From a phage, in NCBI GenBank assembly GCA_020241125.1, contig GCA_020241125.1_4708.1: a stretch of DNA of 64,000 nt, one strand, 5' to 3'. Below are positions 7,850 to 60,233 of the stretch, one piece after another. Both the position numbers and the translations under genes were made by a program. The notes beneath the pieces are model-generated. The model was not told where the DNA came from and did not search any database. It worked only from the letters and a program-made list of their open reading frames with translations. Numbering within the stretch: the first letter of the stretch is position 1; the number at the start of each line of letters is the position of its first letter.

Positions 7850-9646
7850 TCAATCGATTATGTCGTGATCGTTAATTTCTACAATTTCTTCATCGAATCG
7901 ACCGACGTCTTTCTTCAAGCCTGCATTGGTTGCTGCAACGTCATTTGCAATTTGTGGGGTAATGATTAACCGACCGCGCTCATCGATAGGTGCGTACATA
8001 CTGAACTTCTGACGTCCGGTTGGTTCGGAGTGTGGAAGATTCAGATAGCTTGCACAGAACGGGATGGAACCACTAACCAAACGACTCTCGTCAGCCAATG
8101 CAGCACCGCCTGCGTTTTGGCTCTGGAGAACAACATGCGTGCTCACTTTGAACAGCATGCAATCACCTGGTGACTGAATCGATGTTGCCACTTTCTCACG
8201 TTTATCACGATTGCTCTGGATATTGAGAATCGCTTCCGTTGCAACTTGATTTCGCAACGCCTTCTGTACATCGCGATTGGTCATCTCTTTACGGTTGTTC
8301 TGTCGTTTACCACGTTCTGTGGTTTTAAGATGGAACCCCAGTTTAAAGATGCTCTTACGCACATCCTCCATGACATATTCCAACACCATCAATTCCTTAC
8401 CGAACATCGTCGTGGTATCAACACGACTCATTTCGATAGTGACATTGTCAATCAGATACGCCATAAATTCGTAGAAGTCGTCGCAAGGAATATTTTCCTG
8501 TTTGAACTTCTTCTGCTGAATCTCGTCAACGTAAAGATCGAGACTGTCGATGTGGTGATTTACATCACGTAACAAACGCGCATCCGCGTTGTTGTTATTA
8601 AAGATAATCAAACCGAGTAATGTACGCCAATGGTCTGGCGCATTCGCGAACTCCTCAACCGGATAGTCTTCCGGAAAACGATCGTAATAACGGTCGATGA
8701 GATACAAGAATGCACCGACAAGGCCAAGAACAATACGTTCCGTGCCTCCGCGTCTTACAGCAATTTGAATATCAGGATGTTTGTAACGTACAGCGCTAGC
8801 GCTACGGCTTTTACCGCTTTTGCTGATACTAAAGCCTTTAGGAATAACCCCCATGGTGCGATAGATTACCCATTGGTCACGCGGAAAATCGCGTTCAGCA
8901 AGGTTCCGTCCGGTTACGGCTTCGACACCTGCAAAACGTCGGAAACACTCACCCACCCCATACTTCGCAAAGAGATAGTGACCCAGTGTGGTTACGCTGG
9001 TGTGGTTGATGTTGTCACCGTTCACTTTACTTTGTTTAGTAAGATGGTAGATTTGCGACCAGGGTAACGACAGGTAATGACGATAATCGATACCGGTCGG
9101 TGTATCATTGCTCAGGAACTGATACGGTGTACGTTTAACCGTGATTTTGTCACGCGGAAGCATGATGAACGCCATGTCTTTCGTGTAACTGATTACCGGG
9201 TCAGCGAGCACTGCACTGAGAATGAAGTTCGCACCACGTAGACGCATTTTACCACCCTGACCTACCGCGGGTAATAGGAGAGGATGTCGGATAATGCAGT
9301 AGTCCTTTCCGGGTTCACGACGGTCACCTGATTCCATCGCGCCGTACCAGCGGAATTCTAGCATCACCATAAACACATCGGATGGCGCAAGGTCGAAGGT
9401 CAGCTTACCGCTATCCTTCCCTTTGGTTTTCTTTCCTCCGCTTAAGTAGTGGAACTGTTCGCGGGCCATACAGCGACGCAGGCCATGATACACCAGATCC
9501 TTAGGTAAACTATCTTTGCTGTTCCGCCAAAGACGATCAACATAGGACTCAACATCTTGCATCTTATCGACGACGATGTTGCGTGCTATCTTCTCGTTCA
9601 TCTTCGGTGCAAGCCCAGCGACAGCTTTGCAGAATCTAGGATCCAT
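7850..9646 (-). CDS. hypothetical protein (598 aa)
   Basis: ORF-track start is GTG at 9649; ATG at 9646 has AAGGAG 6 nt upstream. Confidence 0.8.
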   Translation of the reverse strand: MDPRFCKAVAGLAPKMNEKIARNIVVDKMQDVESYVDRLWRNSKDSLPKDLVYHGLRRCMAREQFHYLSGGKKTKGKDSGKLTFDLAPSDVFMVMLEFRWYGAMESGDRREPGKDYCIIRHPLLLPAVGQGGKMRLRGANFILSAVLADPVISYTKDMAFIMLPRDKITVKRTPYQFLSNDTPTGIDYRHYLSLPWSQIYHLTKQSKVNGDNINHTSVTTLGHYLFAKYGVGECFRRFAGVEAVTGRNLAERDFPRDQWVIYRTMGVIPKGFSISKSGKSRSASAVRYKHPDIQIAVRRGGTERIVLGLVGAFLYLIDRYYDRFPEDYPVEEFANAPDHWRTLLGLIIFNNNNADARLLRDVNHHIDSLDLYVDEIQQKKFKQENIPCDDFYEFMAYLIDNVTIEMSRVDTTTMFGKELMVLEYVMEDVRKSIFKLGFHLKTTERGKRQNNRKEMTNRDVQKALRNQVATEAILNIQSNRDKREKVATSIQSPGDCMLFKVSTHVVLQSQNAGGAALADESRLVSGSIPFCASYLNLPHSEPTGRQKFSMYAPIDERGRLIITPQIANDVAATNAGLKKDVGRFDEEIVEINDHDIID

Positions 9647-9685
9647 CACACACTCCTTTCAGAAAGTTGCTTAAGCAGATTAAAG

Positions 9686-11459: not shown

Positions 11460-13682
11460 TCAGTTAGTCTGAACAGGCAGCTTGATGTTTTCAGTGTAGA
11501 CCTTACGCAGGTTCACAACGTTAATCAGACCCAGCAGCGGGCAGTTGTTAACGAAGCGGCAGCGCGGCTGAACCATGGTTTCTTTAGAAACCTGACCGTT
11601 ACGGGTAACCTGAGCAACAGATACCAGTTCCGGTACATACAGGAACATACCGAAGGTCAGCGGATCCGGAGAACCCTGGATACCACGAGACAGGGTCACG
11701 AAGATCTTATCGCGCAGCATGACGTTCGGGTTATCTACAACTACGAAGTTGAAGCTTACACCAACGGTACGGAAATCACCATCGGTCTGCAGGAACTGCG
11801 GGATGTAGTTGTCAGTTGCTACTACGCAACGCGGTTTCTCATCAGCGTTGGAAGACAGCAGCTGCAGAGCTGGCTGATAACCAGACTCGGAGTACATGCG
11901 GTATGCCATCTCACGAATCACGTTCATGATCGCAGCAGACACTTCAGCACGACGTTCTGCAGTGGTGGTACCCTGAACAGATTTCTCCAGGTCCAGATTG
12001 ATTTCTTCGAACCACGGACGGATCAGGTAACGACCGAAACCTTCGATCTGGATGTCACCGAACTGACGGAAGCGAGAGGTCGCAACCGCTTTCAGTGCGT
12101 CTTTGTAGCTGAACAGTTTCTCAACCATCAGGTTGTCGAAACGTGCGTTAGCAGCTTGGATCAGAACGTCCAGGTCAGCAGCGTTTTCTTCCCAATCCAG
12201 CGGACGAGGAATGGAGAACGGAGCCAGCAGGCCGATTGCGTAACGTTCTTGCTTCATGTTGAAGTCAAGGTGCTTACCGCGCTCACGACGGTTGCTGTTG
12301 TTACGGCGGATACGCAGTTCGTAACCAACCAGTTTGAAGCTCAGGTCTTCAGCCAGTTGTTTGAACTCTTCGCTCTTACGCGGTTGTTCGATGTTGTCCT
12401 GATCAACCAGGCGATACAGTTCAGCGTTAGCGCCGTTAACACGCAGACCGGCTTTCTCTACGTTGGAAGAACCGTAAACTTCGATCGCCAGCTGAGCAGC
12501 AGATTTCGCATCGATGATGTCCTGCAGCGCTTCAGCTTTCGCGCCTTTAACGTCTTTGGTGTTCTCATCAACGAAGATGGAGTGGGTGTCGAACGCCAGG
12601 GTCATTTTGCGGAAGTCGCCTTCCAGGGATTTCTGGAAACCGTTGGTGATCAGACCAGATACGTCGAACGGTACGTAAGAGGTTTTGCTGTGCTTGGTAG
12701 ATTTGATTTCCACCAGGATTTTGGTCAGCGTGATCTGGGCGTCCAGCGCGTCGGTGTTGTCGCTGTAACCGTTAGCCAGGATGCTATCGTCTTCAGCAAT
12801 ACCGATCATGTCGATCAGTTTATCAACAGCCAGGTAAGACGTTTTGTAAGTTACGCCTTTAATTTCGATGTCGCGCGGAGCAACGATAGCTTTGTCAACG
12901 AAGTACTGTGCGTTAGCATCGTCAGCACGATAGATCGGATGCAGATCGGTCACGTCGTTGGACAGAACGTCGTTGTACATGAACGCATCCAGCAGCGGAC
13001 GACGTACCCAATCAGCCGGAGTACCGTCAGCGTTACGACGCAGGTGGTTGAACACCAGCGGACGACGGAAAGATACGTCGTAACCGATCTGGTTCGGAGC
13101 CAGAACGATGGTGTTGTACAGTTCGTTACCCATGCGGCTCAGACGAGAAGCCTTCACGTTGAACACAACGGAGTACGGCATCATGTCACGCAGTTCTTTC
13201 TGGTCGTAGGACAGCTGAACCAGTTCTTCAGATTCGCAACCGCAGGAATCAGCAGCCATCATGACGAAGTTAGAGCTGTCAACTTCACGGCCAGACGGAG
13301 TGGTGCTGATGTTCATGGAACGTGCTTGTTTAGCATATTCTACCGGGTTACCATGAGCCAGCATGATCAGTGCTGCTGCACGAGCCTGCTGTGCGTTCAT
13401 GGTGAACAGCTGTTCTTCAATACGCTGCTTCTCTTCCGGAGTGGTGGTTTCGAAGCCCAGCATGGACAGAACCGGTTCTTCGGCTTTACGGATGTCGCTG
13501 CTGAAGCTCTTAACATCCATTTCGTTAACCAGTTTGTCCATGGATTTGAAATCAACCTTAGAAGCAGATTCCATAGACAGGAAGGTGTTCTCCAGACCTT
13601 TGTCTGCTGGTTTGCTACCATTAGCGGTCAGGAACTGGCGAGTGGCCGCGACCTGTTGGCTAAGAAGGGTTTTATCATTCAT
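11460..13682 (-). CDS. putative major capsid protein (740 aa; size comparable to phiKZ-type MCP)
   Basis: Strong host-optimal codon usage suggesting high expression; AAGGA SD 8 nt upstream of ATG; functional call from size and codon usage only. Confidence 0.5.
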   Translation of the reverse strand: MNDKTLLSQQVAATRQFLTANGSKPADKGLENTFLSMESASKVDFKSMDKLVNEMDVKSFSSDIRKAEEPVLSMLGFETTTPEEKQRIEEQLFTMNAQQARAAALIMLAHGNPVEYAKQARSMNISTTPSGREVDSSNFVMMAADSCGCESEELVQLSYDQKELRDMMPYSVVFNVKASRLSRMGNELYNTIVLAPNQIGYDVSFRRPLVFNHLRRNADGTPADWVRRPLLDAFMYNDVLSNDVTDLHPIYRADDANAQYFVDKAIVAPRDIEIKGVTYKTSYLAVDKLIDMIGIAEDDSILANGYSDNTDALDAQITLTKILVEIKSTKHSKTSYVPFDVSGLITNGFQKSLEGDFRKMTLAFDTHSIFVDENTKDVKGAKAEALQDIIDAKSAAQLAIEVYGSSNVEKAGLRVNGANAELYRLVDQDNIEQPRKSEEFKQLAEDLSFKLVGYELRIRRNNSNRRERGKHLDFNMKQERYAIGLLAPFSIPRPLDWEENAADLDVLIQAANARFDNLMVEKLFSYKDALKAVATSRFRQFGDIQIEGFGRYLIRPWFEEINLDLEKSVQGTTTAERRAEVSAAIMNVIREMAYRMYSESGYQPALQLLSSNADEKPRCVVATDNYIPQFLQTDGDFRTVGVSFNFVVVDNPNVMLRDKIFVTLSRGIQGSPDPLTFGMFLYVPELVSVAQVTRNGQVSKETMVQPRCRFVNNCPLLGLINVVNLRKVYTENIKLPVQTN

Positions 13683-49399: not shown

Positions 49400-51151
49400 A
49401 TGAGCGAACAAGAACGAAAACCTAAGAAGAAACTGCTCGGTATTCAATGTCGACACATCAGCTATAACGAAGCGAACGATGGCAGCAAGAACGACCTCAT
49501 GATCGCAAAAGAGATCATGTTCTTCGATGATAATACGCAAGCGACGAACCTTCGCTTCTTCGAGAATTACAAACGTCCGTTTTGGGTGACGGTAGAGAGT
49601 AAACGTAAGAACAAATATAAAAAGGAAAGCGAGAAGCTCTCGCATGTGCGTCGCTACGATGTCCGCCAAAGCGAACTGGTTGAAAAGATCAGCTCGGTAC
49701 TTTATAAAAGACGTGCTGACGATAACACCCGTTTACAGCAGCTTGCACGGAGTCCATACCTCTATGGAACGGACGTTAGCGCCAGCTGTTATTTAAAAAC
49801 CCAGTACAACACAAAATGGCCGGAATACGTCGATAAATTACCCGCTTCCATTGCCTGTTTCGATATCGAAACCGACGTTGTCCACGGACACGGTAAGATC
49901 GTTTGTATGTCTATTACAATGGGATACAATGCGATACTTTGCTATACCAAGGACTTCGTTGGTCATATTCCGAATGCCATTGAGAAAACCCATGAGAAGA
50001 TTCGATATTACCTGGCCGAACGTCTGAATACCAAAGAAGATCCCCACGCATTCGAAAAATATCAGTACGATGTTCGAATCGTAGAAAGCCCGGCACAAGC
50101 GGTCATCCAATGCATGCAGAAGGTTCACGAATGGCAGCCGGATTATCTCCTTGGCTGGAATATCGCGTTCGATATTCCGCGCATGCTCCAGGCACTGAAC
50201 GAGGAAGGGTATCGTCCCGAGGATGTTTTCTCCGATCCCCGTATACCACCTAAATATCGTATTGCTCGCTGGGTACCACCGAAGACCGACAAGGTATCTG
50301 CTTCAGGTCGTAAAACCAACCTTACCCTTGAGCAAACCTGGCCGATGTTTTATACGATGGCTACGTATCAGGTTATGGATGCGATGTGTGGCTATAAGTT
50401 CGTTCGTTTAGGAAGACCGGATGAAGGACGCTATTCACTCGATGCGGTGTTAGAGCGAAATAAATGCCATACGAAATTAAAAGCTATTCCTGGTACAGAG
50501 GGGTTCACGGAGCTTGCCTGGCACGAAGAGATGCAAACGAACCATCAAATCGACTACGGCGTATATAACCTTTGGGATAACCAGGGTATTGAGGCGTTGG
50601 ACCAGAAAACAAAAGACTATTCGATGACCATCCCTATCCGTTTAGCGGCGTCGGATTTGAAAGATTTCAGTTCTAACCCTAAACGTATCTGCGATAAACT
50701 TTTCTTCGTTTATCTTAACCGTGGGGAAGTCATGGGATGTACCGCTGACGACATGACCCAGGAAGAAGATAAGTGGGTTATCTCACGAGCTGGACATATC
50801 GTCACATTACCATGCGATCTCATGGCTGACAACGGCATTCATCTCTTCTGGGATATGCCGAACCTGAGAAGTTATATCCGTCTATTCGTTGCAGACCTTG
50901 ACATTAGCAGTTCATACCCGAATGGGCAGATCCTGTTGAATCTATCCAGAGCGTGTGTTTTTCGCGAGCTCTCACGCATTGAGGGCGTCTCTGACTATCA
51001 ATTCAGGAAGTTAGGTATCAACTTTATTACCGGAGGTAAAACGAACGCTGTAGACTTCTGTAGAATCGTTTATAAAGCACCATCGATGTTTGAACTTTTA
51101 GAACATTTCGATGCAACGCGTCCAAAAGAGGAAGCGCGGACCATCGAATGA
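49400..51151 (+). CDS. family-B DNA polymerase N-terminal fragment: 3'-5' exonuclease domain plus polymerase motif A (583 aa)
   Basis: Exo I ACFDIETD, Exo II YLLGWNIAFDIPRML, Exo III YSLDAVLER, motif A DISSSYPN, degenerate motif B-like KLGINFITGG; ORF ends before any motif C (YGDTDS). Confidence 0.75.
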   Translation: MSEQERKPKKKLLGIQCRHISYNEANDGSKNDLMIAKEIMFFDDNTQATNLRFFENYKRPFWVTVESKRKNKYKKESEKLSHVRRYDVRQSELVEKISSVLYKRRADDNTRLQQLARSPYLYGTDVSASCYLKTQYNTKWPEYVDKLPASIACFDIETDVVHGHGKIVCMSITMGYNAILCYTKDFVGHIPNAIEKTHEKIRYYLAERLNTKEDPHAFEKYQYDVRIVESPAQAVIQCMQKVHEWQPDYLLGWNIAFDIPRMLQALNEEGYRPEDVFSDPRIPPKYRIARWVPPKTDKVSASGRKTNLTLEQTWPMFYTMATYQVMDAMCGYKFVRLGRPDEGRYSLDAVLERNKCHTKLKAIPGTEGFTELAWHEEMQTNHQIDYGVYNLWDNQGIEALDQKTKDYSMTIPIRLAASDLKDFSSNPKRICDKLFFVYLNRGEVMGCTADDMTQEEDKWVISRAGHIVTLPCDLMADNGIHLFWDMPNLRSYIRLFVADLDISSSYPNGQILLNLSRACVFRELSRIEGVSDYQFRKLGINFITGGKTNAVDFCRIVYKAPSMFELLEHFDATRPKEEARTIE

Positions 51152-52306: not shown

Positions 52307-52705
52307 TTATGCTTCGCAATCAGCTGAAGGCGTCGCGCCTTTCTTACCAGCGATACGCCAAATCCGACACGCTGGGTAATGGTTAACCTCTAGAGAGCAA
52401 GGAATGTTATATTTCTCTTCCAGCGCATAAAGACATTTCGTTAGCTGCTCCAGCGCGTTCTCGTCGTGTCGTAACGCGTGGTGGCCTAATCGATGTTGGT
52501 CGTTCTTTATATACGCCTCGAAGAGAACATGTTGGCGATGTACGCTGACGTTTACAGCCTCGAGTATAGCTTGGTCGAGCATACGACTAAAGCACATCAA
52601 CGAGTCAGATACGTTTTCTCGCTTAACCAGATCGATCATGGCGGGAATATACGAATGGTCGATGTTATCGATGACCGCTTTAGCGACGGAATCAGCAACG
52701 TTCAT
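52307..52705 (-). CDS. hypothetical small protein (132 aa), tandem paralog of 52743..53138
   Basis: Shares VKAVxDNIDH and EEKYNIPxSLEVN blocks with the next gene. Confidence 0.7.
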   Translation of the reverse strand: MNVADSVAKAVIDNIDHSYIPAMIDLVKRENVSDSLMCFSRMLDQAILEAVNVSVHRQHVLFEAYIKNDQHRLGHHALRHDENALEQLTKCLYALEEKYNIPCSLEVNHYPACRIWRIAGKKGATPSADCEA

Positions 52706-52742
52706 CTTTTTTAATCCCTAGTTTGTTATTGATCACGTATAT

Positions 52743-53138
52743 TTACTCTTTGACGTCAGTTGTCGTTTCGACATGCTTCTCACTACTGACGTACCAGAGC
52801 AGGTACGCTGGGAAAAGATTGACCTCTAAGCTAAATGGGATATTGTATTTCTCTTCCATTTTACAGAGATGTTCTTTAAGTAAATTTCTCGCGTCTCTGT
52901 CACCACGAACAGAGTGCCAGTCTAGTTCTTTGTTCTCCTTTACCAGGACCTCTACGATGATACGTTGCTCGTGAACCTCGGTTTTCACAGTGAAAAGTAA
53001 ATCGCTGCTATCCAAACGGGTAAAACGAATGTATGAACCAGGTGTTTTTTCTTGTTTAATAATATCGATCATGGTAGAAATGCGCGGATGATCGATGTTG
53101 TCGTTAACAGCTTTAACGATGGATTCTACAATGCTCAT
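52743..53138 (-). CDS. hypothetical small protein (131 aa), tandem paralog of 52307..52705
   Basis: Shares conserved blocks with previous gene. Confidence 0.7.
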   Translation of the reverse strand: MSIVESIVKAVNDNIDHPRISTMIDIIKQEKTPGSYIRFTRLDSSDLLFTVKTEVHEQRIIVEVLVKENKELDWHSVRGDRDARNLLKEHLCKMEEKYNIPFSLEVNLFPAYLLWYVSSEKHVETTTDVKE

Positions 53139-53170
53139 TTTTTATCCTTAATGTTATCGATTTGGAAATA

Positions 53171-53938
53171 TTACTTATTTTTGCTTTCTTTATAGACAGT
53201 TGTTACCCACGATGGGAAAGCCGGATGGAAACAGAGCGTGAACGTAACTGTCGTATCGTATTTAAACGCACAGTTCACTAACCGGGTATCTAACGTTTTC
53301 CTTAATCCGTCATCATCGTTATCGATGATGGTCATATCTCTTAATATCCCAAGCACGTTAACGCCATCGGGTGTCTGGGTTACGACAAGTCGTCGTAATG
53401 GCCCGCATGTATAGTCACGTACAAATCCTTTCTTCGGGTCCGATACCCTGTTTAACGCATCGTGATTTTTGATGAATTCATCGGCGATACAATAGGTTTG
53501 TTCCCTTGCTTTATCGGGATCGTATTCTGCTAATAGTTCCTTCGTGTCGAATGTTATCGCGTTATTAGCATTCGATTCAGAAGGGAAACATAAAACTAAA
53601 CGAACAGGGTATTCATATTGATCTGTTCTCGTTTCGAAAGCATTAGCTAAACACGGCTTGTATGCCTTTGCGTCGACATTGTCCAAACACGGATGCAATA
53701 ATGCGTGAATAACGGCACCATCGTCAGTTAAACCGAATTCCAGAAATTGTGTTTCATCGACATCCGTGACGGTTTTCTGAAGATACGCTTTACCGTTAAC
53801 GATATCGGTATCCCACATATCGTCGTTTAACGATTCTTCAAACTTATCGAATATATGGTTTACGAAATTGATGAGTTCATCAATACGACACTGTTGGTTG
53901 AATTCGATTAATCGTTGAACTTTATCTCTGATAGACAT
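53171..53938 (-). CDS. hypothetical protein (255 aa)
   Basis: ORF. Confidence 0.7.
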   Translation of the reverse strand: MSIRDKVQRLIEFNQQCRIDELINFVNHIFDKFEESLNDDMWDTDIVNGKAYLQKTVTDVDETQFLEFGLTDDGAVIHALLHPCLDNVDAKAYKPCLANAFETRTDQYEYPVRLVLCFPSESNANNAITFDTKELLAEYDPDKAREQTYCIADEFIKNHDALNRVSDPKKGFVRDYTCGPLRRLVVTQTPDGVNVLGILRDMTIIDNDDDGLRKTLDTRLVNCAFKYDTTVTFTLCFHPAFPSWVTTVYKESKNK

Positions 53939-53940
53939 GA

Positions 53941-54405
53941 TTACTCCTTAGTTCCTTCTTCGTTGGACGTATATTCCACATAGTGGAATTCACGGCCGTC
54001 GATAAACTTGAGTGCTACTGTAATAGGGAAATCACACGGCATAGCGGATTTCGTAAATGCGTTATCAGCAACATCAGATAACCGACGTATGGTATTCTCC
54101 CCTTTTGCTATGAATGGGAATTTAATGTTAATAAGGATACGGTGTTTGTAAATAGTAAAGACGACAGTGCTGTCGAAATGTACCCCAGTTAAAGTCATTG
54201 TTGGGATACGTTTTACAACGGAGAAATGTGTCCCGTCAATATCGCTACTTCCCACTGACCATTCATCGGAATTGCGTAGACTTTTCTTGAGGATATCAAC
54301 GCTTTGCGTGACCACCTCAGCAACTTGTACGACGTACGTGTCTTTATGCATGTCGAAAAGTTCGTTGACGTTAGATTTGAATGAATAAACCGTTGCCATT
54401 ATCAT
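53941..54405 (-). CDS. hypothetical small protein (154 aa)
   Basis: ORF; C-terminal HYVEYTSNEEG resembles neighbours. Confidence 0.65.
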   Translation of the reverse strand: MIMATVYSFKSNVNELFDMHKDTYVVQVAEVVTQSVDILKKSLRNSDEWSVGSSDIDGTHFSVVKRIPTMTLTGVHFDSTVVFTIYKHRILINIKFPFIAKGENTIRRLSDVADNAFTKSAMPCDFPITVALKFIDGREFHYVEYTSNEEGTKE

Positions 54406-56103: not shown

Positions 56104-56171
56104 TTAATGATGAAAAGCTGTAAAAAAAGGTGGGGCGAACCCCACCAAAACGTCAGACACACGCGGGAAAA

Positions 56172-58039: not shown

Positions 58040-59341
58040 TTAACTAATATAAAGTTCGGGATCGTAAGGCGCTAACGATACACTGGCGTTATGCATTGCT
58101 TTCATCATAGTGTTCATGAAAACGTTGTTTACACCGGTGATCTCTGCCCCGATCGCGTCTGGGGTTGGAGCCATCGCGTTACCGCAACAGGTAGCACAGT
58201 ATTCCAGTGGGCCTGCTTTACAACGTTGAGGATCACGTAACTTGATGGTCTGTCCTTCCAAGGAAGCAAGTAATTCAGCATCAATAAGTTTAAGCGCTGC
58301 GCCGTCGATCATGTAACGGCCGACAAGCAGCTTATCTTTGATATGATCGCGGTTTACCGTGAACAGAATATGTTCGTGGGTACCACAGTCGTCCATCGTG
58401 ATTTTAAGGTTCTGTGTCGCACGTTGTGATTCTTTCGCCGTCTGTCCCGCTAAAGCGGTCAGTGCGCCACGTGAGAACGAACCTGCACGTGCGCTGTTGT
58501 TGTACTCCGCCCAATGGTCGACACGCATCCCTTCAGCCAGGCTGTGTGTGATAACGTTACGTTTACCAGGGTCAACGAAGTCGGCTTCAACCCCCATCAT
58601 GATGTGCGTTTTCTTTCGAGTATTACCGAAACTCTTACCGGGGTTAATATAGAACCCTTCCGATTCATCACCCTTAAAGGATTCCTTATCCATTTTGGTC
58701 AGCGTGGCTTCGAGTTTGATCAGTTCTTCAGGCGTGAACTTACCTTCCTCTTGTAAGCGTGCTAACTCTTTATCGCGATAGGCAATAATATCATCATCGA
58801 CCGTTAACGCTTTATCACTCATTGATGGAACAATTAAACGGTTGATAGCGGTTAACGCACTAATATTGTTGGTGAATTTCTTCACTTCGCTTGCGTACAA
58901 CGGACCAATTGGACGTTCGTTAGGATCGGGTATTCCCTCTTCAGGATCGTCAGCGACGCGTGGCGCAATCAGTGACTCCAGTGTACCGCTGGTCAACCGT
59001 CCTGCCTGGTATTCAATCTGAATACCGAAAGCATCATAAAGGACGTACATATTGAACAACGCTTCACCGAAGGTTGTGGTGGTTGTATTCTTAACCGACG
59101 GTAGATCACCAGGTGCAAGCTCCAATGGCTCCCAGAAACTCAACAGGGGTTTTGTTGGCTCGGTTTCCCATTGGTGTTCTTCACCGTCGATGGTAACCGT
59201 AACGACGTTACCTTGACGACGTAATTTAGGCTGATACTTCTCAGCGCCGCCTTCCGTAAAAGCAAATGCGTCGTTAATCCATTCAAGATAACGGTAGTGC
59301 CCTTCACGCATCGCGTAAAGGAAATATTCACGAGGTGTCAT
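58040..59341 (-). CDS. multisubunit RNA polymerase beta-prime C-terminal-like subunit (433 aa)
   Basis: Exact DDCGTHE motif; segment GSFSRGALTALAGQTAKESQRATQ aligns to the beta-prime bridge helix region; CATCCG near C-terminus; no NADFDGD, so this is a split C-terminal piece. Confidence 0.75.
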   Translation of the reverse strand: MTPREYFLYAMREGHYRYLEWINDAFAFTEGGAEKYQPKLRRQGNVVTVTIDGEEHQWETEPTKPLLSFWEPLELAPGDLPSVKNTTTTTFGEALFNMYVLYDAFGIQIEYQAGRLTSGTLESLIAPRVADDPEEGIPDPNERPIGPLYASEVKKFTNNISALTAINRLIVPSMSDKALTVDDDIIAYRDKELARLQEEGKFTPEELIKLEATLTKMDKESFKGDESEGFYINPGKSFGNTRKKTHIMMGVEADFVDPGKRNVITHSLAEGMRVDHWAEYNNSARAGSFSRGALTALAGQTAKESQRATQNLKITMDDCGTHEHILFTVNRDHIKDKLLVGRYMIDGAALKLIDAELLASLEGQTIKLRDPQRCKAGPLEYCATCCGNAMAPTPDAIGAEITGVNNVFMNTMMKAMHNASVSLAPYDPELYIS

Positions 59342-59354
59342 GTAACAACTCCTT

Positions 59355-60233
59355 TTAAACCCGGGTCAGGTCACCGTGACATGAAACGAACTCTGATAAC
59401 GCTCGGGTTGCTTCTTTGGATTCTTCAGCCATCGGGAAGTTTGCGGTAATAAGTTCTCGTAAGACAGGGACGAGTTCATTATCTTCGAGATCGGAAGCTA
59501 AGGCGAATGCAATCAGTTCTTGGGTGTATGCATACGGTTGCTGACGTAATGCAGTAAGCTGATCCCGACACTGCGACATTAGCAGGTCCAGTGGAACCGC
59601 TATCGTACCCCCTTCATCAATATACTGGCTGAACACTGGTGGGAACGCATCGCTGATGACACGAATACGTCGACGAATATGATCCGGAATCTGGACGTTT
59701 TCTTCATCGACGACGTTTTCGCTATCTTTCTCCAGCTTCTTGGTCAGTACCTCTTGAATGCGTGGAAGTAAGCTTGAATGCACGAAACCGATTAATGGGG
59801 TTACGTTAACAGCATCAACGCCGTAAATATAATGCGCGCATTCCGCTAGCGCTTCAGCTGTGGTGTAGTCTTCATCTTCAACGATAGCGAGTAGAAAAGC
59901 GGTATCGTCGTGTGTTTCCAGGTCTAATAACGTAGACGCTAGCGCATGAAGATATTTCAGGCTATCCAGAGTTAGCTGCCCTTCGTTAATTCGGATCCCG
60001 AAGGCAAGCAATTGTTGTTTATAAAGTTCGATACATCCGTTTGTTAAAATGATGTCTAATTCGTTTAAATCGTATTGTTCCCCAGCACCTGACAACATCG
60101 TACTGCAGAACGTTTCCAGTTGTTCACATTTAAAATCTTGGTATAAACGATGTATGCAGTGCTGTAACAGCGTACGCCTTGTTTCAGGGATCTTACCTTC
60201 TAACAAAGCCAAGACGGAATCAATCATATCCAC
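59355..60233 (-). CDS. hypothetical protein (292 aa)
   Basis: ORF. Confidence 0.7.
   Translation of the reverse strand: MDMIDSVLALLEGKIPETRRTLLQHCIHRLYQDFKCEQLETFCSTMLSGAGEQYDLNELDIILTNGCIELYKQQLLAFGIRINEGQLTLDSLKYLHALASTLLDLETHDDTAFLLAIVEDEDYTTAEALAECAHYIYGVDAVNVTPLIGFVHSSLLPRIQEVLTKKLEKDSENVVDEENVQIPDHIRRRIRVISDAFPPVFSQYIDEGGTIAVPLDLLMSQCRDQLTALRQQPYAYTQELIAFALASDLEDNELVPVLRELITANFPMAEESKEATRALSEFVSCHGDLTRV

Follow-up and report, generated by a model that had tools for sequence, protein, structure and literature searches.

Jumbo phages of the phiKZ kind encode two split multisubunit RNA polymerases (RNAPs), a virion RNAP (vRNAP) and a non-virion RNAP (nvRNAP). In phiKZ, the vRNAP is made up of gp178, gp149, gp180, and gp80, which are described as 'at least four' polypeptides, and this phage is not believed to encode homologues of α or ω (PMC8287921). 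In SPN3US, a 431 aa protein, gp42, is found in virions and has been named β′M; particles of an amber mutant in gp241 (βN) are without gp42 and without all of the other vRNAP subunits (PMC5105663). For Goslar, a nucleus-forming jumbo phage of the Chimalliviridae, five vRNAP subunits (gp78, gp196, gp205, gp207, and gp210) have all been reported from virions by liquid chromatography with tandem mass spectrometry (bioRxiv 10.64898/2026.04.21.720040). The sequence considered here, referred to as the window, is a 64 kb stretch of phage DNA (contig GCA_020241125.1_4708.1 of assembly GCA_020241125.1), in which an ATG-initiated open reading frame (ORF) at 58040..59341 (-) encodes 433 aa plus stop. There is little doubt that this ORF encodes β′M, the middle piece of the β′-like subunit of the vRNAP, in a Goslar-type nucleus-forming jumbo phage (Chimalliviridae).

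The ORF product shares 99.8% aa identity (432/433) with gp078 of Escherichia phage vB_EcoM_Goslar (YP_009820763.1), which is the gp78 of the virion study and whose RefSeq record gives the genus as Goslarvirus. The window corresponds to ~30–94 kb of the Goslar genome, the DNA around the ORF is ~94.5–95.6% identical, and the genes gp075–gp084 around it are collinear. The ORF and gp078 differ at 57 nucleotides, which fall in 56 codons; 55 of these codons are synonymous and 1 is nonsynonymous (H322 vs Q322), demonstrating very strong purifying selection on the ORF. Publications on phiKZ, SPN3US, and Goslar, the last with this 99.8%-identical orthologue, have thus already described this gene and its family, together with the role and virion location of the product.

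PHROG 2962 ('RNA polymerase beta subunit') matches residues 1–432 of the 433. When 1.84 billion representatives were searched exhaustively with HMMER, 2366 relatives were found at E<=1e-3, 935 of these at E<=1e-30. The best 150 family representatives are nearly all 423–464 aa, and the C-terminus is identical in position in all of them. In a family alignment of 97 sequences sharing at most 50% identity, the mean column identity is 31–32% and nine columns are invariant (G250, R291, T295, G299, C319, C374, C382, C385, and H417).

Profile and fold comparisons show the ORF to be homologous to bacterial β′, though diverged from it. When all 64 kb were searched with E. coli RpoC by tblastn, the single significant match was at 58358–58552 (E=1.1e-5, 35% identity over 65 aa), within the ORF, and phmmer against the β′ chains of the PDB aligned residues 263–329 with β′ 758–824 (E=3e-3). 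Comparison of ORF profiles with β′ by hhalign gave E=2e-7 and E=1.5e-6, the latter for the 97-sequence profile against E. coli RpoC, which places residues 260–417 on β′ 755–936. The same 97-sequence profile, used in hmmsearch against the PDB, finds bacterial β′ (1.5e-9), the nvRNAP β′C of AR9 (1.5e-8), and phiKZ gp74 (1.2e-6). An earlier sequence-only reading of the window, made by eye, had proposed a stand-alone β′ fragment with a segment resembling the bridge helix and without the catalytic NADFDGD motif. The resemblance is upheld by all four of these search methods, the profile and fold matches are to β′, and a motif search finds neither NADFDGD nor DxDxD anywhere in the 433 aa protein.

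The same reading had drawn attention to the heptapeptide DDCGTHE, which is indeed present and is identical to that at 812–818 of E. coli β′. Among the 97 family representatives the conserved core of this motif is D-C-G-[TS], with D318 in 89/97, C319 in 97/97, G320 in 84/97, and T/S321 also conserved, while H322 and E323 of the ORF are uncommon at their columns. Codon 322 (58376–58378) encodes H here and Q in Goslar gp078, which therefore reads DDCGTQE. The exact match to the host β′ is thus lineage-specific and probably coincidental, and the identity over all seven residues is partly a matter of chance.

A family motif, TTYGN.L.N, matches TTVGRAILW of β′ (E. coli 572–580), which indicates that the protein starts shortly after the β′ catalytic loop. 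From the alignments, the funnel and secondary-channel region would occupy aa ~1–250, and the F-loop and bridge helix aa ~250–309. Within the bridge helix, R285, G287, T295, and G299 align with E. coli β′ R780, G782, T790, and G794, and R291, T295, and G299 are invariant in the 97 representatives. In the alignment, the family's four invariant cysteines (C319, C374, C382, and C385) fall opposite the ligands of zinc site II in E. coli β′ (C814, C888, C895, and C898). They correspond also to C288, C341, C350, and C353 of the paralogue phiKZ gp74, for which the Zn-binding domain has been described in a solved structure (PMC8287921). Further towards the C-terminus, the counterparts of M932, R933, and H936 in the trigger loop of E. 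coli β′ are M413, K414, and H417. The local hhalign alignment stops exactly at H417 = H936, and greedy extension concurs. The protein terminates 16 aa past H417 (aa 433, nt 58043), and a tail of 15–16 aa is seen in 97/97 sequences.

The structural model agrees with this order of elements. The AlphaFold2 (AF2) model used here was made with a 96-sequence alignment (mean predicted local distance difference test, pLDDT, 93.1; predicted template modelling score, pTM, 0.79). It supersedes an earlier run with a 7-sequence alignment, which had a pLDDT of 62, with the conserved core <50, and for which Foldseek matches pointed to RNAP with a template modelling (TM) score of only ~0.2. The 96-sequence model has a 36-residue helix at 274–309, then a module rich in β-structure surrounding the cysteines, and finally a helix, 397–417, whose last residue is the invariant His. 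With this model, Foldseek retrieved 269 PDB matches at E<=1e-3; the best 50 of the 269 are all β′ or AR9 nvRNAP β′C chains, with a probability of 1.00, TMq of 0.42–0.52, and 363–475 aligned columns. The β′ chains among these best 50 are from E. coli, Thermus, Mycobacterium, and the cyanobacterial RpoC2 type; the match to AR9 chain D is at 8e-10. The profile match to RpoC is thus significant, and DDCGTHE falls inside a conserved fold that is confidently modelled (pLDDT 93), these being the points on which the sequence-only reading might have failed.

Since phiKZ-like phages have two polymerases, the ORF has to be assigned to one of them. BLASTP with phiKZ gp80, of the vRNAP, shows 31% identity (E=1e-49) across residues 1–419, whereas the pairwise BLASTP similarity of the ORF to phiKZ gp74, the β′C of the nvRNAP, is not significant (E=3.7). 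The ORF is ~430 aa in length, against 631–677 aa in nvRNAP β′C proteins. The record for phiKZ gp80 carries the note 'structural head protein', and gp79 is also noted as a structural head protein in the phiKZ record. By these comparisons the ORF is an orthologue of phiKZ gp80 and SPN3US gp42 and not of the non-virion paralogue gp74. A gene for an nvRNAP subunit, the orthologue of phiKZ gp123 (Table 1), is also present in the window, and β′ is split in both polymerases, which would be compatible with the ORF being the β′C of the non-virion, late-gene RNAP. That reading is very improbable, not only because of the contrast between gp74 and the full-length match to gp80, but also because PHROG 2962 matches over the full length at 5.8e-106, whereas the second PHROG match, phrog_3015, is local only (4e-11). 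In addition, Goslar gp78 is among the vRNAP subunits in the virion mass-spectrometry data (bioRxiv 10.64898/2026.04.21.720040). The suggestion in the sequence-only reading that the polymerase could be packaged in the virion is therefore borne out, through the orthology with phiKZ gp80 and the published virion mass spectrometry for Goslar gp78 and SPN3US gp42.

The gene immediately upstream is a homologue of phiKZ gp79 (Table 1). The adjacency of gp79 and gp80 is kept between phiKZ and this phage, despite protein identities of only ~22–31%.

The ORF is the middle piece of a β′ that is split three ways, covering about regions a13–a16 of Lane and Darst, with the second break at the tip of the trigger loop. 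In other β′ proteins the chain continues well past the matched region, by roughly 240–290 residues in the nvRNAP β′C proteins (phiKZ gp74 has 677 aa and its match ends near 394; AR9 β′C has 631 aa and its match ends near 369) and by ~470 in E. coli β′. Thomas et al. place regions a17–a20 on a fifth polypeptide of ~240 aa, SPN3US gp244, which is homologous to phiKZ gp176 (PMC5105663). The β′In6 insertion site is directly after a16 (PMC5105663).

Much of the literature calls phiKZ gp80 the β′ homologue and counts four vRNAP polypeptides, or 'at least four' (PMC8287921), in which case the ORF could be a true C-terminal fragment of β′, running from the bridge helix to the end, in a vRNAP of only four polypeptides. 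This is improbable, given the stop 16 aa past the trigger-loop His where E. coli β′ and the nvRNAP paralogues go on for the distances given above. It is opposed also by the fifth subunit for a17–a20 supported by SPN3US genetics and proteomics (PMC5105663), and by the five subunits counted in the Goslar virion study (bioRxiv 10.64898/2026.04.21.720040). The earlier description of the ORF as the C-terminal part of β′ is accordingly right in that this is a β′ fragment lying after the catalytic loop, and has to be amended in that it is the middle piece, a13–a16, with a17–a20 on the fifth polypeptide.

The partners of the Goslar protein, assigned by matching size and PHROG family, are listed in Table 1. 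Recognisable β motifs can be seen in gp207 and gp196 by eye, without a statistical test. The genes for gp205, gp207, gp196, and gp210 map to 204–230 kb of Goslar, ~150 kb away, and tblastn of Goslar gp196, gp205, gp207, gp210, and gp247 and of E. coli RpoB against the 64 kb window gave no significant match. The expectation that the partner pieces would lie outside the window thus holds for the vRNAP.

Some results weigh against the identification of the ORF as the β′M of a vRNAP. No Pfam family, the RNA-polymerase domains included, matches the ORF at E<=1, and it does not reach the gathering threshold of the Pfam Rpb1 domain models (RNA_pol_Rpb1), so that the case for placing it in the cellular β′ family is made by profile-profile comparison and by fold. 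In single-sequence pairwise alignment, the last 41–73 residues fit the E. coli trigger-helix region no better than shuffles do; what supports the assignment of the trigger helix is the profile alignment, along with the invariant His and the predicted helix. The proposal of SPN3US gp244 as β′C is itself weakly supported (hidden Markov model, HMM, E=0.05; PMC5105663), and the pairwise alignment of Goslar gp210 with E. coli β′ 1121–1407 is not significant. No solved structure of a vRNAP was found in the literature searched.

The lack of a Pfam domain match, together with an identity to cellular β′ of ~17–26% and an exact heptapeptide that is partly coincidental, might be taken to mean that the ORF encodes a degenerate relic of β′, which has no part in catalysis and persists as a protein of the capsid or of ejection, or that the motif match is due to chance. 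It would be hard on this basis to account for the residues that are invariant in the 97 sequences, which are those with known β′ roles (the four Zn ligands, the T and G of the bridge helix, and the trigger-loop His), or for purifying selection that has left 55 synonymous changes to 1 nonsynonymous. The significant PDB matches are to β′, both in the profile search and among the best 50 of 269 by Foldseek, and SPN3US gp42 is lost from gp241 amber-mutant particles along with the other vRNAP subunits (PMC5105663). A relic or chance match is therefore the least credible of the alternatives considered, and extremely improbable.

As β′M, the ORF product supplies the β′ elements that lie downstream of the catalytic Mg loop: the funnel, F-loop, and bridge helix, then zinc site II, and then the first trigger helix, from which M413, K414, and H417 would make the contacts with the nucleoside triphosphate. 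The chain then ends, 16 residues past H417, at the tip of the trigger loop, which is the site of the bacterial β′In6/SI3 insertion. Having no Mg-binding loop, the product cannot be catalytic alone, and it would function only after assembly with β′N (gp205), βN (gp207), βC (gp196), and β′C (gp210), using the Goslar names. This five-piece enzyme, without α or ω, would be assembled late in infection and then packaged in the capsid, assembly before packaging being indicated by the proteomics of the SPN3US gp241 amber mutant. On ejection it would accompany the DNA into the early-infection vesicle, and there it would transcribe the early genes without the host RNAP. Packaging, assembly, and early-gene transcription are drawn from the literature on the orthologues, including the 99.8%-identical one, and would apply by analogy to this phage.

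The position of the second break raises the possibility that the trigger loop of the vRNAP is built in trans, with the second trigger helix either coming from the separate β′C of ~236 aa or absent; the chances of this seem about even. In either case the packaged polymerase would work with a two-chain or half trigger loop. A second trigger helix at the start of gp210 could not be confirmed by pairwise alignment. In the literature searched, no explicit discussion of such a loop in the vRNAP was found, and PMC5105663 does set the break after a16.

With regard to β′N, in Goslar the gp205 gene is followed by the HNH-type gp206, which is similar to phiKZ ORF179, and then by an annotated group I intron (segments L003 46818–48711 and L005 757–2265). 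The annotated C-terminus of gp205 (...YLAGLGGDQGKANKMPVFWQI) stands where NADFDGD is expected, which suggests that the catalytic loop may sit at the exon junction and that the gene model may be wrong.

The ORF is inside a leftward block of closely packed genes (60233->56172), and its ribosome-binding site abuts the stop codon of the upstream gene. The block is probably terminated by the hairpin beyond its end, a terminator being annotated at the equivalent site in Goslar. A scan for sigma-70-like promoters around the ORF found them to be no more frequent than in shuffled sequence, as is expected because the phage uses its own polymerases.

Table 1. Positions of the features discussed, numbered on the 64 kb window, followed by the Goslar vRNAP proteins with their assigned roles
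Feature	Position	Strand	Length	Basis or remarks
AAGGAG ribosome-binding site	59349..59354	(-)		Sequence read; 7 nt before ATG
Bridge helix	58415..58522	(-)		aa 274–309; hhalign and HMMER alignments to β′ 755–810; continuous 36-residue AF2 helix
DDCGTHE heptapeptide	58373..58393	(-)		aa 317–323; C319 = first ligand of β′ zinc site II (E. coli C814)
Zinc-site-II module	58187..58387	(-)		aa 319–385; invariant columns, β′ alignment, profile match to 7ogp_D 284–394
First trigger helix	58091..58153	(-)		aa 397–417; hhalign, AF2 helix, invariant H417
Upstream gene, phiKZ gp79 homologue	59355..60233	(-)	292 aa	13-nt gap; BLASTP to PHIKZ079 E=1e-6; PHROG 5038
Strong hairpin resembling an intrinsic terminator	56129..56146	(-)		GGTGGGG-TTCG-CCCCACC then T7
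phiKZ gp123 orthologue, nvRNAP βC subunit	7850-9649	(-)	599 aa	PDB 7ogp_E E=2.9e-40; PHROG 2943 E=1.2e-119
Goslar gp205			502 aa	β′N
Goslar gp78			433 aa	β′M
Goslar gp210			236 aa	β′C (candidate)
Goslar gp207			1448 aa	βN
Goslar gp196			224 aa	βC

Other regions of the window also bear on the comparison with Goslar. The Goslar orthologue of the phiKZ gp123-like nvRNAP gene is labelled only 'polymerase' in RefSeq. This gene is ~2 kb from a 740 aa ORF (11460–13682) that fits the major head protein gene of Goslar in size and position, and its nearness to this major-head-like ORF parallels the arrangement in phiKZ (gp120...gp123).

In the case of the DNA-polymerase (exonuclease-domain) gene at 49400–51151 (+), there is an unbroken ORF of 583 aa here, while Goslar gp068 stops at 499 aa and is followed by a 1.78 kb insertion (L001 18413–20193) carrying the NUMOD1/HNH endonuclease gp069 and an RNA resembling a group I intron (RF00028, 44.7 bits, E=1.5e-9). 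The score of this RNA is slightly below the gathering score, and it is not annotated in Goslar. Given the uninterrupted ORF, this phage appears to have an intron-less allele of the DNA-polymerase gene.

The ~1.6 kb at ~52316–53950 of the window has no blastn match in the segment of Goslar compared (L001), and holds an ORF of 255 aa at 53171–53938 (-). The small genes flanking it, equivalent to gp071–gp073, have 67–79% aa identity, as opposed to 95–100% elsewhere in the region. These comparisons suggest that the stretch is a variable cassette of small genes.

According to the literature, a packaged vRNAP lets nucleus-forming jumbo phages transcribe their early genes in the early-infection vesicle without the host polymerase. 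Since this role had been assigned previously in phiKZ, SPN3US, and Goslar, finding the gene here adds nothing new on the system, and the practical outcome is better annotation. At present GenBank has the gene as a 'hypothetical protein', and RefSeq and PHROGs give 'RNA polymerase beta subunit'; these labels should be replaced by 'virion RNA polymerase β′ subunit, middle fragment'. The strictly conserved chain break at the tip of the trigger loop is a point of possible interest to specialists.

When the ORF product is set beside bacterial RpoC (~500–950 in E. coli), the elements follow one another in the same order: TT.G..L.N, the F-loop, the bridge helix, DDCGT, the four-Cys zinc site II with CxxCxG, and the trigger helix with M...H. 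The ORF product is instead one fragment of an enzyme split five ways, without NADFDGD, the clamp, or the C-terminal regions. Division of β′ into separately encoded polypeptides that reassemble is found also in cyanobacteria and chloroplasts (RpoC1/RpoC2) and in archaea (A′/A″). The split sites in these appear to differ from those of the ORF family, and there would be one break in β′ there, as against two here. The comparison of split sites draws also on Fig. 7 of PMC5105663. The best Foldseek matches of the ORF product include 8gzh_Z, a cyanobacterial chain of the RpoC2 type.

The paralogous split β′ proteins phiKZ gp74 (7OGP chain D) and AR9 nvRNAP β′C (7S00 chain D) have the bridge helix, the Zn finger, and the first trigger helix. 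Both are subunits of the late-gene polymerase, which is not packaged, and unlike the ORF family, which stops in the trigger loop, they extend further to include the second trigger helix and the β′ C-terminal regions.

In contrast, phiKZ gp80 (449 aa) and SPN3US gp42 (431 aa), both reported as virion proteins, are of similar length to the ORF product and have the same stop past the trigger-loop His. The sequences are highly diverged, phiKZ gp80 having EDCNTW where the ORF product has DDCGTHE, and matches in the SPN3US-like Salmonella phages are at ~30% identity. Goslar gp078 has the same length, 433 aa, and the same genomic context, and differs by Q322 and 55 silent codons. Its RefSeq label is 'RNA polymerase beta subunit', whereas the homology found for the ORF is to β′ and not to β.

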